From IMG/VR virus record IMGVR_UViG_2534682330_000007: DNA of 49,277 nt. One strand, written 5' to 3'. Below, in pieces: positions 6,869 to 46,803 of this stretch. The translations under genes were made by a program, and so were the position numbers. The stretch's first letter is position 1. Every line of letters starts with the position of its first letter. Under the pieces are notes generated by a model. The model was not told the origin of the DNA, did not search any database, and saw nothing but the letters and a program-made list of their open reading frames with translations. This stretch comes from a virus. Lineage: Duplodnaviria > Heunggongvirae > Uroviricota > Caudoviricetes.

Positions 6869-7650
6869 GCAGCCACCTTCTGCTCAGTGGCTTTCTGTTT
6901 CAGGAATCCAAGAGCTTTCACTGCTTCGGCCTGTGTCAGTTCTGACGATGCGCGAATGTCGCGGCGAAATATCTGGGAACAGAGCGGCAATAAGTCGTCA
7001 TCCCATGTTTTATCCAGGGCAATCAGCAGAGTGTTAATCTCCTGCATGGTTTCATCGTTAACCGGAGTGATGTCGCGTTCCGGCTGACGTTCTGCAGTGT
7101 ATGCGGTATTTTCGACAATGCGCTCGGCTTCATCCTTGTCATAGATACCAGCAAATCCGAAGGCGAGACGGGCACACTGAATCATGGCTTTATGCCGTAA
7201 CATCCGTTTGGGATGCGACTGCCACGGCCCCGTGATTTCTCTGCCTTCGCGGGTTTTGAATGGTTCGCGGCGGCATTCATCCATCCACTCGGTAACGCAG
7301 ATCGGATGATTGCGGTCTTTGCGGTAAATCCGGCATGTGCAGGATTCATTGTCCTGCTCAAAGTCCATGCCATCAAACTGCTGGTTTTCATTGATGATAC
7401 GGGACCAGCCATCAACGCCCACCACCGGAACGATGCCGTTCTGCTTGTCAGGGAAGGCGTAAATTTCTTTCGTCCACGGATTAAGGCCGTACTGGTTGGC
7501 GACGATCAGCAATGCGATGAACTGCGCATCGCTGGCATCACCTTTAAATGCCGTCTGGCGAAGAGTGGTGATCAGTTCCTGTGGGTCGACAGAATCCATG
7601 CCGACGCGTTCAGCCAGCTTCCCAGCCAGCGTTGCGAGTGCTGTACTCAT
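6865..7650 (-). CDS. bet: Red beta single-strand annealing protein
   Basis: 261 aa [66 protein letters not shown] matches lambda Bet. Confidence 0.97.
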
Positions 7651-7655
7651 CCGTT

Positions 7656-8072
7656 TTATACCTCTGAATCAATATCAACCTGGTGGTGAGCAATGGTTTC
7701 AACCATGTACCGGATGTGTTCTGCCATGCGCTCCTGAAACTCAACATCGTCATCAAACGCACGGGTAATGGCTTTTTTGCTGGCCCCGTGGCGTTGTAAA
7801 TGATCGATGCAGAGTGATTCAAACAGGTGCTGGGGCAGACCTTTTTCCATGTCGTCTGCCAGTTCTGCCTCTTTCTCTTCACGGGCGATCTGCTGGTAGT
7901 GACGCGTCCAGCTCTGAGCCTCAAGACGATCCTGAATGTAATAAGCGTTCATGGCTGAACTCCTGAAATAGCTGTGAAAATATCGCCCGCGAAATGCCGG
8001 GCTGATTAGGAAAACAGGAAAGGAGGTTAGTGAATGCTTTTGCTTGATCTCAGTTTCAGTATTAATATCCAT
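7656..8072 (-). CDS. gam: Gam, RecBCD inhibitor
   Basis: 138 aa [55 protein letters not shown] matches lambda Gam. Confidence 0.97.
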
Positions 8073-8170: not shown

Positions 8171-8303
8171 TTTTTGGGACTCCTGGCTGATTAAGTATGT
8201 CGATAAGGCGTTTCCATCCGTCACGTAATTTACGGGTGATTCGTTCAAGTAAAGATTCGGAAGGGCAGCCAGCAACAGGCCACCCTGCAATGGCATATTG
8301 CAT
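8139..8303 (-). CDS. cIII: cIII (FtsH inhibitor), 54 aa; below the ORF-track size cutoff
   Basis: Hand translation of the minus strand from ATG at 8303: MQYAIAGWPVAGCPSESLLERITRKLRD, as recalled for lambda cIII; overlaps kil as in lambda. Confidence 0.85.
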   Translation of the reverse strand: MQYAIAGWPVAGCPSESLLERITRKLRDGWKRLIDILNQPGVPKNGSNTYGYPD

Positions 8304-8375
8304 GGTGTGCTCCTTATTTATACATAACGAAAAACGCCTCGAGTGAAGCGTTATTGGTATGCGGTAACGCCGCGC

Positions 8376-17374: not shown

Positions 17375-18472
17375 TTAGAACTGGTAAACCAGACCTACAG
17401 CAACGATGTCATCAGTGCTTACACCGAGTGCTTTAGTGAAGTCATTTTTGTCAAGCAGGTTGATTTTGTAATCAACGAAAGTAGACATATTTTTGTTGAA
17501 GTAATAGGTTGCACCTACATCAACATATTTGACTAAGTCCTGATCGCCCCATACTCCAAGATCCTTACCTTTAGATTGCAGGTAAGCAACGGACGGACGC
17601 AGACCGAAATCGAACTGATATTGTGCAACAGCTTCGAAGTTTTGGGCTTTATTAGCAACGAAGTGATCAGCAAATACAGTCATATTCTGGGTTTCAGAAT
17701 AGGTAGTGGCCAGGTAAATGTTGTTAGCGTCATATTTCAGACCTGCGGCCCAAACTTCTGCATTTTTACCGGAAGCAAATACTTCAGGAAGAACTTTCCC
17801 TGCATTAACTTGAGTGTCGGTACGATCAGATTTTGCATAAGTTGCACCGATACCGAATCCTTCGTATTCATAGGTAGCAGAGAAACCGAAGCCATCACCG
17901 TTACCTTCGGTGTAGTTATCGAAATCGCTACGATCGTTTTTGCCTTGGTACTGAGCAGCAAAGTTCAGACCATCAACCAGGCCAAAGAAGTCGTTGTTAC
18001 GATAGGTTGCAACACCAGTGGTGCGACCAGTCATGAACACATCTGTTTGGGTCCAGGTATCGCCACCGAATTCTGGCAGAACGTCAGTCCACGCACCGAT
18101 GTCGTATGCTCCACCGTAGTTACGGCCGTAATCGATTGAGCCGTAGTCACCGAATTTCAGGCCTGCAAATGCAAGACGGGTTTTGTCTTTGGAGGAACCT
18201 TGAGATTCAGCGCGGTTGCCTTTGAATTCATATTCCCACTGACCGAAACCAGTCAGTTGATCGTTGATTTGGGTTTCACCTTTGAAGCCAAGACGGGCAT
18301 AAGTAGTATCACCATCATCTGCATCATTAGAGGAGAAGTAGTGCTTAGCATTAACTTTCCCGTACAGATCCAGCTTGTTACTGTCTTTATTATAAATTTC
18401 AGCTGCCTGAGCAGACATCGCCATCAGTACTGATGCAGCTACAGCAGAAATTGCCACTGTTAATTTTTTCAT
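17375..18472 (-). CDS. nmpC: Outer-membrane porin of the OmpC/OmpF family (phage Lc / NmpC type), intact 365 aa
   Basis: Signal peptide [23 protein letters not shown], porin beta-barrel signature with C-terminal ...VAVGLVYQF; same position and orientation as nmpC in DLP12 and lc in phage PA-2. Confidence 0.92.
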
Positions 18473-18900: not shown

Positions 18901-18934
18901 AAACCCGCCGTCGAGCGGGTTTTTCCATTTTTTG
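18901..18934 (+). terminator. Intrinsic terminator, candidate tR' of the late operon, about 130 bp upstream of the holin
   Basis: AAACCCGC-CGTCGA-GCGGGTTT stem-loop followed by TTCCATTTTTT; the late promoter pR' and the Q utilisation site were not located. Confidence 0.5.
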
Positions 18935-19061: not shown

Positions 19062-19277
19062 ATGAAATCCATGGATAAGTTAACAACGGGTGTCGCCTAT
19101 GGCACCTCAGCAGGTAGTGCCGGGTACTGGTTTTTACAGCTGCTAGATAAAGTCACGCCCTCACAGTGGGCGGCAATTGGAGTGCTGGGTAGCCTGGTAT
19201 TTGGCCTGCTGACGTACCTGACAAACCTTTATTTCAAGATTAAAGAAGACAAGCGTAAGGCTGCACGGGGAGAGTAA
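19062..19277 (+). CDS. S: Pinholin, phage 21 S21 type, with dual-start motif (MKSM)
   Basis: 71 aa [71 protein letters not shown], matching S21 as recalled. Confidence 0.92.
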
Positions 19278-19281
19278 TTCA

Positions 19282-19626
19282 ATGACTCAAAACTATGAAC
19301 TGATTGTGAAAGGGATCCGCAATTTTGAGAATAAAGTTACGGTAACTTTAGCGTTACGGGACAAAAAACGCTTTGACGGTGAAATTTTTGACCTGGACAT
19401 CTCGCTGGACCGTGTTGAAGGTGCCGCGCTGGAGTTTTATGAGGCAGCAGCCAGAAGGAGCATCAGACAGGTCTTCCTGGATGTTGCTGCCGGGTTATGT
19501 GAAGGGGATGAGCTGTCGCCGGAAAAGCGCCCCATAATTTTAGAGGCGCAGAATGTGTGGATAACCTACAAAGGAAAGCTACCGGGAAGAATTACTGGTT
19601 CTCTGAAGACTCCGCCGAAATGGTAA
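19282..19626 (+). CDS. Hypothetical protein, 114 aa, inserted between holin and endolysin
   Basis: ATG 5 nt after the holin stop with GGGGAGAG upstream; no family recognised; absent from the phage 21 and lambda lysis cassettes. Confidence 0.55.
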   Translation: MTQNYELIVKGIRNFENKVTVTLALRDKKRFDGEIFDLDISLDRVEGAALEFYEAAARRSIRQVFLDVAAGLCEGDELSPEKRPIILEAQNVWITYKGKLPGRITGSLKTPPKW

Positions 19627-19864
19627 TTTCACCAGCATATTTTTCTTCCAGTAATACCGCCAGCCACTTGAAAGAATTTTGTTGTTGCTGGGACCATTTG
19701 GGGTTGAGTGATTCAAGCTGGAGCGATGCCAGTGTTGGTTGCATTTGTTCCTTGGGAATTGAGAATGCCAGATATGAAAATGCGACAGTAAGGGCATTTA
19801 CATCATCCCGAAGCCTGGAAATGCAGTCGAGCAACTCCTGTAGAGAAATGGTGCTATTGTCCAT
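19592..19864 (-). CDS. Hypothetical protein, about 90 aa, convergent with and overlapping the 114-aa gene
   Basis: ATG at 19864 preceded by AGAGAGGA; 3' ends of the two genes overlap by 35 nt; an alternative plus-strand ORF (19557-19889) covers the same DNA. Confidence 0.45.
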   Translation of the reverse strand: MDNSTISLQELLDCISRLRDDVNALTVAFSYLAFSIPKEQMQPTLASLQLESLNPKWSQQQQNSFKWLAVLLEEKYAGEITISAESSENQ

Positions 19865-19969
19865 AAACAATCCTCTCTATTGTATTTAACTATTCCTTGC
19901 CTGATTCAACAGGCCGGGACAGATAAACATATCCAGGGTTCAGAAACCGATAAATCCTGATAAATATCC

Positions 19970-20503
19970 ATGAACGCAAAAATCAGATACGGCCTGTCGG
20001 CTGCCGTTCTGGCACTGATTGCCGTCGGTGCGCCTGCGCCTGATATTCTCGACCAGTTTCTGGATGAAAAAGAAGGTAACCACACAACGGCATACCGCGA
20101 TGGTTCCGGCATCTGGACCATCTGTCGGGGTGCCACGGTGGTGGATGGAAAACCCGTTTTTCCCGGTATGAAACTGTCGAAGGAAAAATGCGACCAGGTT
20201 AACGCCATTGAACGGGATAAGGCGCTGGCATGGGTGGAGCGCAATATTAAAGTGCCACTGACCGAACCACAGAAAGCGGGTATCGCGTCATTTTGTCCCT
20301 ATAACATTGGCCCCGGTAAGTGTTTCCCGTCGACGTTTTATAAGCGGCTGAATGCCGGTGATCGTAAAGGTGCATGCGAGGCGATTCGCTGGTGGATAAA
20401 AGATGGTGGGCGCGATTGCCGCATACGTTCAAATAACTGCTATGGACAGGTTATTCGTCGTGACCAGGAAAGCGCATTAGCCTGTTGGGGGATAGATCAG
20501 TGA
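19970..20503 (+). CDS. R: SAR endolysin (T4-lysozyme family with N-terminal signal-anchor-release domain), phage 21 R21 type
   Basis: 177 aa; N-terminal hydrophobic segment [16 protein letters not shown] then catalytic E...D...T motif region ([20 protein letters not shown]). Confidence 0.92.
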
Positions 20504-20958
20504 GCAGAGTCGCCGCGATTATTTATGCTCTGGTTATCTGCATCATCGTCTGCCTGTCATGGGCTGTTAATCATTACCGTGATAACGCAATCGCCTACAA
20601 AGAGCAGCGCGATAACAAGGCCAGTGAACTGGAGAAGGCGAACGCCACCATCGCTGACATGCGGAAGCGTCAACGTGATGTAGCAGAACTCGACGCAAGA
20701 TACACAAAGGAGCTTGCTGATGCTAACGCGACTATCGAAAGTCTCCGTGTTGATGTTTCTGCTGGGCGTAAGCGCCTGCAAGTCGCCGCCACCTGTGCAA
20801 AGTCAACGACCGGAGCCAGCGGCATGGGCGATGGAGAAAGCCCAAGACTTACAGCAGATGCTGAACTCAATTATTACCGTCTCCGAAGTGGAATCGACAA
20901 GATAACCGCGCAGGTTAACTACCTGCAGGAATACATCAGGACGCAATGCCTGAAATAA
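20500..20958 (+). CDS. Rz: Rz i-spanin (GTG start overlapping the endolysin stop)
   Basis: [65 protein letters not shown] resembles lambda Rz; single N-terminal transmembrane helix. Confidence 0.85.
20720..20905 (+). CDS. Rz1: Rz1 o-spanin lipoprotein, embedded in the +1 frame of Rz
   Basis: ATG 20720 with AAGGAG 7 nt upstream; [33 protein letters not shown] has a lipobox-like LGVSAC and a proline-rich stretch. Confidence 0.7.
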
Positions 20959-21162: not shown

Positions 21163-21684
21163 ATGAATATCGTGCCACTTAATTACAAAGGTGAAATTGT
21201 CAGTTTCAACACTGATGGTTGGATCAACGTCACAGGTGTTGCTGAGAGATTTGGGAAACGCATTGATAACTGGATGCGTTTGGCAGAAACGCTTGAATAC
21301 GTTCGTGCTTTAGACGAAGCGTTGACCGGGAAAGAATCTCAAATTTTACATCCCTCACAATCGAGGTATGTAAAAACCAGCAAGGCACGAAAGGACAGGG
21401 GTGGTGGTACGTGGCTACATCCAAAACTTTCAGTTGCATTTGCCCGTTGGTGTGATGCTCGTTTTGCTGTGTGGTGCGACCTGCACATTGATAGTCTGCT
21501 TCGCGGTGAACTGACTGAGCAGCAGAAATATGAGCAAGCATGTCGCATTCGCGATGACCGGAAATCAAAAGCCAGCAATGGGGCAAGAGAGATGGCTCGC
21601 TGGCGATGGGATAAGCCGGTTATTGAAGCAAATGTTGAGTACTGGCGCGAGCAACTGCAGTTGACTCTCGATATCGCGTGCTGA
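21163..21684 (+). CDS. KilA-N domain protein, 173 aa
   Basis: N-terminus MNIVPLNYKGEIVSFNTDGWINVTGVAERFGKRIDNWMRLAETLEYVRAL typical of the KilA-N DNA-binding domain. Confidence 0.7.
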   Translation: MNIVPLNYKGEIVSFNTDGWINVTGVAERFGKRIDNWMRLAETLEYVRALDEALTGKESQILHPSQSRYVKTSKARKDRGGGTWLHPKLSVAFARWCDARFAVWCDLHIDSLLRGELTEQQKYEQACRIRDDRKSKASNGAREMARWRWDKPVIEANVEYWREQLQLTLDIAC

Positions 21685-46222: not shown

Positions 46223-46803
46223 TGGCATTCAGAATGAGTGAACAACCACGGACCATAAAAATTTATAATCTGCTGTCCGGAACTAATGAATTTATTGGTG
46301 AAGGTGATGCATATATTCCGCCTCATACAGGTCTGCCAGCAAACAGTACCGACATTGCACCGCCAGATATTCCAGCTGGCTTCGTGGCTGTTTTCAACAG
46401 TGATGAGTCATCGTGGCATCTCGTTGAAGATCATCGGGGTAAAACGGTTTATGACGTGGCTTCCGGCGACGCGTTATTTATTTCTGAACTCGGCTCATTA
46501 CCGGAAAATGTCACCTGGTTATCCCCGGAAGGGGAGTTTCAGAAGTGGAACGGCACAGCCTGGGTGAAAGATGCAGAAGCAGAAAAACTATTCCGGATCC
46601 GGGAGGCGGAAGAAACAAAAAACAGCCTGATGCAGGCAGCGAATGAGCATATTGCGCCACTTCAGGATGCTGTAGATCTGGAGATCGCAACGGAGGAAGA
46701 AACTTCGTTGCTGGAAGTCTGGAAAAAGTATCGGGTGTTGCTGAACCGTGTTAATACAACAACTGCTCCGGATATTGAATGGCCAGTAGCACCTATAGGG
46801 TAA
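46222..46803 (+). CDS. tfa: Tail fibre assembly protein Tfa
   Basis: 193 aa [78 protein letters not shown]; start overlaps the stf stop. Confidence 0.9.

Follow-up and report, generated by a model that had tools for sequence, protein, structure and literature searches.

A described counterpart of the locus treated here is the lysis region of the Qin prophage of Escherichia coli K-12, which has the gene order essQ-ydfR-rrrQ. Its ydfR gene codes for a protein of the DUF1327 family and sits directly behind a holin gene of the S21 type and ahead of the gene for a signal-arrest-release (SAR) endolysin, the location at which ydfR is found in lambdoid prophages. According to a recent study (RNA Biol 2026, PMC13232886), the first 72 residues of Qin YdfR bind the N-terminal catalytic half of RNase E (residues 1-597), as determined by two-hybrid and co-purification experiments, and DNase-resistant nucleic acid (RNA) co-purifies with the protein. 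In the same study, Qin YdfR was not expressed in standard growth, and its overproduction changed few transcripts and caused no growth defect; a screen cited there ties ydfR to envelope integrity. Our literature search on ydfR in combination with essQ, and on ybl58, gave nothing useful.

We analysed a stretch of 49,277 nucleotides, IMG/VR virus record IMGVR_UViG_2534682330_000007, which is a complete lambdoid E. coli prophage and is called the window in the following. Its lysis cassette is of the phage-21 type: a class II holin (pinholin; gene S), a SAR endolysin (gene R) and Rz/Rz1 are encoded in one late operon. Between S and R, at positions 19,282 to 19,969, the window contains two convergent genes whose 3' ends overlap. 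One is ydfR, a late-operon gene directly behind the pinholin gene; the other, which we call X, is encoded on the opposite strand. In phages, X stands tail-to-tail with a gene of the late strand, and in four sequence-distinct contexts this partner carries the C-terminal motif of YdfR. With moderate confidence, we regard the segment as a widespread mobile two-gene accessory cassette within an otherwise standard lysis cassette of the phage-21/Qin type (S-ydfR-X-R-Rz/Rz1). DUF1327 and an unnamed PHROG were already known as the families of the components; apparently, neither the repeated convergent arrangement nor the tail motif has been described before. The features of the segment and its immediate neighbours are:

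19062..19277, plus strand: phage-21-type class II holin (pinholin) of 71 residues; PF04971, E=2e-35; dual start MKSM; named essD by PGAP
19282..19626, plus strand: ydfR (DUF1327), 114 residues, late-strand accessory gene; PF07041; C-terminal tail ...RITGSLKTPPKW
19592..19864, minus strand: gene X, 90 residues, PHROG 2411; opposite to late transcription
19592..19626, both strands: 3'-3' overlap of ydfR and X, 35 nucleotides; the YdfR tail is encoded opposite the final 11 codons of X
~19622..19910: indel of ~290 bp between the form with X and phages with ydfR only; alignment edges at ~19621 and ~19905-19912
19865..19969: intergenic region with the ribosome-binding site of X, a palindrome and the region upstream of R
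19970..20503, plus strand: SAR endolysin (R21-type lysozyme), 177 residues; PF00959, E=1e-24; hydrophobic N-terminal SAR segment; named lysozyme by PGAP

The pair of open reading frames (ORFs), its 35-nucleotide overlap and its place between pinholin and SAR endolysin had been noted in a first-pass annotation, all coordinates of which were confirmed, as were the good ribosome-binding sites claimed for both ORFs. The ATG of ydfR lies 4 nucleotides past the holin stop and is preceded by the site GGGGAGAG; for X, the arrangement is AGAGAGGA-N6-ATG, and an alternative TTG start at 19870 would give 92 residues. The PGAP annotation of an identical E. coli chromosome (strain S1-CAM-01-C) lists exactly these four genes under the names essD, 'YdfR family protein', 'hypothetical protein' and lysozyme. 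The small palindrome GCCTG-N6-CAGGC is located at 19899-19914, between X and the endolysin gene, and the final ~45 nucleotides before R are common to phages lacking X. In a few database proteins (P0065, P0067, P0099, P0154), the holin domain PF04971 and the YdfR domain PF07041 are fused in a single ORF; as holin and ydfR are out of frame in the window, these fusions probably stem from single-base errors of assembly or from frameshift variants in short contigs.

The first-pass annotation had assumed that cassettes of this type run S-R-Rz without interruption, and had described the pair as inserted. An uninterrupted order exists in some cassettes, such as that of K-12 DLP12, but not in Qin; as essQ-ydfR-rrrQ shows, a gene between S and R is nothing out of the ordinary in cassettes of this type. 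Nor is the insertion rare: among 5426 complete E. coli genomes, the N-terminal domain of ydfR was found in 3579 (66%) and the X region in 1053, so that the pair occurs in about 19%; a query with a region of 1551 bp was covered to at least 80% in 1106 of these genomes. In E. coli B the pair lies inside the Rac prophage. The ydfR genes of the window and of Qin are 89% identical at the DNA level over the N-terminal ~69 residues. The Qin protein differs in having 103 residues and an unrelated C-terminal helix without the ITGSLKTPP tail; moreover Qin has no antisense gene, and the stop of its ydfR overlaps the start of rrrQ.

Both proteins, for which the first pass had recognised no family, could be assigned. 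The plus-strand product matches PF07041 (DUF1327/YdfR) with E=4e-42 and 142.8 bits, compared to a Pfam gathering cut-off of 25; its residues 1-112 align with positions 1-92 of the 93 in the profile. Its N-terminal domain (residues 1-~70) is predicted by AlphaFold2 to consist of three beta strands and a long helix, and with an isoelectric point of 7.8 the protein is near-neutral or basic. X matches PHROG 2411 with E=1.6e-59 over residues 1-90 of 90, and the same PHROG is matched by its relatives from Citrobacter, from contig L101 and from Serratia; searches of Pfam, NCBIfam and PADLOC gave no match to X. Profile searches, one of them over 1.8 billion representatives, revealed full-length relatives of 81-106 residues and 28-45% identity in Serratia (many species), Chimaeribacter, Chania, Gibbsiella, Sodalis, Acerihabitans and Citrobacter. 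The family shares the motif ELL..I..LR..vN.L..AFSYLaF...E......L.fES.N. The X protein is acidic (isoelectric point 4.3), soluble and without a membrane segment, and AlphaFold2 proposes a four-helix model with a mean local confidence (pLDDT) of 71.5. Fold and PDB searches gave nothing specific for X, and a sequence search of the PDB was without a match. For P0187, a viral scan gave no match.

If the minus-strand ORF were a spurious shadow, ydfR would be the sole gene of the segment, and the first pass had itself named this as a possible refutation of the pair. The 692-bp segment is represented by 40 distinct sequences, which show no indel and of which 37 have an intact X. In close variants, the excess of changes at third positions and the ratio of nonsynonymous to synonymous polymorphism (pN/pS) of 0.37 make X look coding. 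A plus-strand ORF of 110 residues lying opposite X (19557-19889), which would be the shadow of a real X, gives an even lower pN/pS of 0.22, a point in favour of the spurious reading; since the two frames have their third positions in common, neither codon-position counts nor pN/pS can choose between them. The choice is made by other data. In a copy with 74% nucleotide identity on the IncF plasmid p4422IncF the minus frame is open over 92 residues and the plus frame is broken, and the latter is also broken in an 86%-identical variant which keeps an X of 90-92 residues. Codon usage favours the X frame, protein relatives at 28-45% identity exist in other genera and contexts, and the model of X is a compact four-helix structure. 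From the distant homologues, the plasmid copy and the codon usage, we judge X to be a genuine, independent small gene on the opposite strand; its dismissal as a shadow is effectively refuted.

A first indication that the two genes belong together comes from the surroundings of X elsewhere. In seven of seven phage-type contexts, X has a convergent partner on the late strand which overlaps its 3' end, and these contexts represent four different genome positions:

E. coli, the window: partner YdfR of 114 residues, overlap 35 nucleotides, between S and R; partner C-terminus ...YKGKLPGRITGSLKTPPKW
Citrobacter freundii (contigs L095-97): partner of 63 residues, overlap 14 nucleotides, directly upstream of holin and lysozyme genes; C-terminus (L095) ...TKINGETRNEKITGSLRAPIKL
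Citrobacter meridianamericanus (L119): partner of 238 residues, overlap 14 nucleotides, upstream of a different holin and endolysin; C-terminus ...KIEGKIRNEKITGSLRVPMKL
L101/102: partner of 62 residues, overlap 20 nucleotides, adjoining terminase; C-terminus (L101) ...IKGGQLRYKRLTGDILIPLES
IMG/VR contigs L113/114: partner of 71 residues, overlap 4 nucleotides, between lambda-like tail genes M and L; C-terminus (L113) ...IKGNIFSDQIFGDLKKPPSY
L117: partner of 60 residues, overlap 15 nucleotides, between lambda-like tail genes M and L
L115/116: partner of 85 residues, overlap 17 nucleotides, short contig by a membrane-protein gene; phage origin not established

For these sequences, the chance that an ORF of at least 60 residues ends in a given 40-nucleotide window is ~0.086 per context. 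Just upstream of the C. meridianamericanus pair, an ORF resembling a HicA toxin (...GGSHQIWWSPITGKTFPVPHPKKDLPLGT...; L119 2587-2814, plus strand) was noticed by eye only.

A second indication is the tail of the partners. In four sequence-distinct contexts including the window, the partner ends with (I/L)(T/F)G(S/D)(L/I)xxP-x3-stop. The pattern [ILV][TF]G[SD][LIV]xxP was matched 100 times in the fetched DNA as a whole (1.47 million residues over six frames), and all of these matches are located in partner ORFs; the motif stands three residues before the stop in every listed match outside E. coli, as it does in the window (...ITGSLKTPPKW-stop). Distant partners encode the motif with codons that differ at synonymous positions as well as at others, which is why selection appears to act on the protein and not on a DNA element. 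Moreover the motif persists while X diverges to ~30-36% identity. The N-terminal parts of the partners are different: in E. coli this is the beta3-alpha domain of DUF1327, in L119 a protein of 238 residues, and several partners begin with a coiled coil (MTLEQRVEILE..., MSLDNKVELLN..., SLEERVTVLEK...).

The main rival is that X and ydfR are incidental neighbours, X being a single-gene moron in a permissive slot beside ydfR, the overlap an insertion junction and the recurrent pairing a consequence of the shared ancestry of such a junction. We consider this alternative plausible but doubtful. The form with X differs from phages 611R1 and BP-4795 by a clean presence/absence of ~290 bp which carries X minus its last codons, and the GC content of this indel is 42.6% compared to 50-52% in neighbouring genes; presence/absence between homologous neighbours and deviating base composition are what is expected of a moron. 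The final codons of X come from the antisense strand of the ydfR tail and are different in the plasmid copy. The slot also houses other antisense ORFs. Phages 2H10 and PhiR12_1 combine a long YdfR (183 or 169 residues) with a different antisense ORF of 86 residues (PHROG 2572, 294 E. coli genomes), and phage Perceval combines a YdfR of 104 residues with one of 79 (PHROG 21218, 102 E. coli genomes). Their positions are:

L089 2002-2268, minus strand: antisense ORF of phage 2H10 (PHROG 2572), overlapping the 3' end of its ydfR variant
L090 1816-2055, minus strand: antisense ORF of phage Perceval (PHROG 21218), overlapping the 3' end of its ydfR variant

Neither of these ORFs showed similarity to X by BLASTP or hhalign. 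The label 'DUF1823 containing protein' given to the PhiR12_1 ORF (L093 1835-2095, PV340549.1) corresponds to a Pfam E-value of 0.11 and is unreliable. The YdfR of Perceval ends with ...SITGC, a truncated version of the tail motif. No antisense ORF accompanies ydfR in phages 611R1, BP-4795 and PhiR47 or in Qin, and the C-termini of these YdfR proteins are of several kinds.

X also occurs by itself. On the E. coli plasmid p4422IncF (NZ_CP076283.1; L084 3960-4238, minus strand), the homologue of 92 residues lies between transposase remnants and an autotransporter gene, outside any phage context. On chromosomes, the order pyrC-dinI-X-bssS-solA is found in S. marcescens, S. fonticola, S. odorifera, Chania, Chimaeribacter and a Sodalis; in a scan with a single genome for each species, X was detected in ~22 species of Serratia and Chimaeribacter, and further chromosomal sites exist in Sodalis ligni and one further taxon. 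The neighbours of these copies (L094 5001-5282; L099, L107-L110) are dinI, which belongs to the SOS response, and bssS, which encodes a biofilm regulator; a comparison of X with DinI and BssS revealed no relationship. In E. coli K-12, dinI presumably adjoins bssS without X. In two of these loci, Serratia marcescens L094 and Chimaeribacter L099, the RNase E gene rne is located ~2 kb upstream. The Serratia X gene forms a monocistronic unit behind the terminator of dinI; the SOS box found there is that of dinI, a gene with a strong terminator of its own, and the region upstream of X keeps just weak -35/-10-like elements.

Several of these observations weigh against a cooperating pair. The chromosomal copies, among them the Serratia gene between dinI and bssS, and the IncF plasmid copy have no convergent partner; conversely, YdfR with the same tail but without X is common (611R1, BP-4795), and Qin likewise has YdfR without X. 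The seven phage-type contexts are not fully independent phylogenetically. The length of the overlap ranges from 4 to 35 nucleotides between contexts, and in 40 variants the 35-nucleotide overlap varies at 6 of 35 columns and is no better conserved than its flanks. Outside the tail, hhalign found no similarity to YdfR/DUF1327 in the other partners, and the partners in L115/116 and L117 have no clean tail motif. What speaks against mere neighbourhood is that a partner was present in seven of seven phage-type contexts at four positions, for an expected chance of ~0.09 each, and that a partner-specific C-terminal motif has been kept while X fell to ~30-36% identity. For these reasons we prefer the two-gene accessory cassette.

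If the genes of this cassette work together, the following course of events can be proposed. X faces against the Q-antiterminated late transcription and would be a gene of the lysogenic side; because of this orientation it would be the member that can be expressed from a resident prophage, like lambda bor. YdfR would be made solely alongside the lysis genes. The acidic X protein, an X transcript reaching antisense into the 3' end of ydfR, or both, might prevent the expression or activity of a YdfR-type partner in the lysogen. The pair may, as suggested in the first pass, be subject to antisense regulation. After induction, late transcription would override X, and the targets of YdfR would then be cytoplasmic, RNA or RNase E, and not the holin. 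Two findings speak against this sequence of steps: the RNase E data were obtained with the Qin variant, whose C-terminus is different, and a consensus scan found neither a promoter nor a terminator for X. In particular, no consensus sigma-70 promoter was found in the region 19865-19969. The hexamers TTGAAT/TACAAT are separated by a 19-nucleotide spacer and were not adopted as the promoter of X, and palindromes and LexA-like boxes occurring upstream of X in some contexts were dropped, as they lack conservation across an alignment of six chromosomal loci. Inside ydfR there is a weak 5-bp GC stem followed by TTTT (z=-0.39).

A more far-reaching version, which we regard as unlikely, is that the pair constitutes an undescribed two-component phage module. 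The conserved tail would then be the docking site of X, and X expressed from the prophage would restrain a late factor binding RNase E or RNA; alternatively, both proteins might form a joint exclusion or defence switch. The Serratia gene between dinI and bssS could in this case be a cellular ancestor or a target mimic.

The first pass had suggested a lysis-timing module. That the pair regulates the timing of lysis by acting on the pinholin or the SAR endolysin has in our view only a very slight chance of being correct. The position invites the idea: the pair lies between S and R in the window and directly upstream of a holin gene in two Citrobacter prophages, ydfR follows the holin gene after a 4-nucleotide spacer, and the screen cited in PMC13232886 links ydfR to envelope integrity. 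However, neither protein has a transmembrane or signal segment or matches a holin family. The reported partners of YdfR are RNase E and RNA, not lysis proteins. The pair also occurs away from lysis cassettes, namely beside terminase and in the interval separating tail gene M from L, which argues against a dedicated role in lysis timing. In addition, many S21-type cassettes, such as those of phage 21 and DLP12, work without the pair.

Equally, the first pass had suggested a toxin-antitoxin-like module. In its general form, i.e. a toxin-antitoxin or abortive-infection/exclusion module, perhaps controlled via the convergent antisense overlap as in type I systems, this proposal is improbable. It fits with the convergent overlapping architecture and with the combination of a small acidic X (isoelectric point 4.3) and a near-neutral or basic YdfR (7.8); furthermore, prophage lysis modules are known landing sites of such systems, e.g. 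of AbiF in C. difficile (bioRxiv 10.1101/2025.04.15.648962). But neither protein matched any toxin, antitoxin or defence model in PADLOC, Pfam or NCBIfam; with the defence models of PADLOC-DB 2.0, no family was hit by either protein at E<=1. The genes are convergent, whereas type II systems are co-transcribed, and no co-directional bicistronic operon was found. Both ORFs encode conserved soluble proteins with a maximum 19-residue hydropathy below 0.9, and neither product is a small hydrophobic peptide as in type I systems. X is conserved without a partner on Serratia chromosomes, and overproduced Qin YdfR was not toxic (PMC13232886). Note that the latter is a weak argument with respect to the YdfR of the window, because the Qin variant lacks the tail motif.

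The remaining features of the late region are those of a lambdoid prophage with further accessory genes:

18901..18922, plus strand: terminator-like hairpin, candidate tR' of the late operon, with a stem of 8 bp and a T run behind it
20500..20958, plus strand: Rz i-spanin; PF03245, E=3e-40; 'lysis protein' in PGAP at locus 7501-7959
~20714-20905, plus strand (+1 frame): ORF of the Rz1 o-spanin lipoprotein, embedded in Rz; lipobox ...LLGVSAC

The hairpin follows the Q gene and a porin gene, a position that suggests its role as late terminator. This porin gene (OmpC/NmpC-like, 365 residues, 17375-18472, minus strand) has the gene of the antiterminator Q on one side and the lysis cassette on the other, the same place that a porin gene takes in DLP12. 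Directly after the spanin genes, the gene of a KilA-N domain protein (21163-21684, plus strand) marks a further accessory slot of the late region; it is followed by DUF1398 and YlcI/YnfO genes and then by the terminase genes. Two Rfam elements scored above the gathering threshold: the Lambda cIII thermoregulator element at 8258-8316 (minus strand, 88.5 bits) and IS009 RNA at 46565-46763 (plus strand, 212.9 bits), the latter toward the tail-fibre end of the prophage.

The pair occurs in about one fifth of the complete E. coli genomes including the laboratory B lineage, and ydfR has only recently been tied to RNase E. Should the two genes cooperate, they would offer a simple and experimentally tractable example of a prophage pair divided between the transcription programmes of lysogeny and lysis, and a first handle on a family of small proteins which is conserved chromosomally across Serratia. 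If they do not, the locus is one more moron slot in a lysis cassette. In either case, annotators should know that the antisense ORF is real.

Four known systems besides Qin can be compared with the locus. Dip (gp37) of phage phiKZ, an inhibitor of RNase E and the degradosome, matches the predicted YdfR fold only at the generic beta3-alpha level and on a low-confidence model (pLDDT 58), and we treat this resemblance as a lead only. Dip has 255 residues and binds the C-terminal scaffold of RNase E, whereas Qin YdfR bound residues 1-597. Type I toxin-antitoxin loci of Bacillus prophages with convergent, 3'-overlapping transcripts, such as txpA/RatA and bsrG/SR4, share with ydfR/X the convergent orientation, the overlapping 3' ends and the prophage location. 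In contrast to these loci, ydfR/X encodes conserved soluble proteins of 90-114 residues on both strands, with neither a small hydrophobic toxin nor a non-coding antitoxin RNA. In Clostridioides difficile prophages, AbiF/Abi_2 genes controlled at the RNA level stand beside holin and endolysin genes (bioRxiv 10.1101/2025.04.15.648962). They resemble the segment as accessory inserts at this site, but there is no sequence or domain relationship, and neither YdfR nor X contains an Abi domain. Lambda bor, finally, is a small moron which adjoins Rz, is oriented opposite to late transcription and encodes a lipoprotein. X shares with such lambdoid morons the small size, the position near the lysis region against the late strand, the presence/absence pattern and the lower GC content; it differs from bor in that the consensus scan recognised no promoter or terminator for it, in its acidic cytoplasmic product and in its conserved convergent partner.

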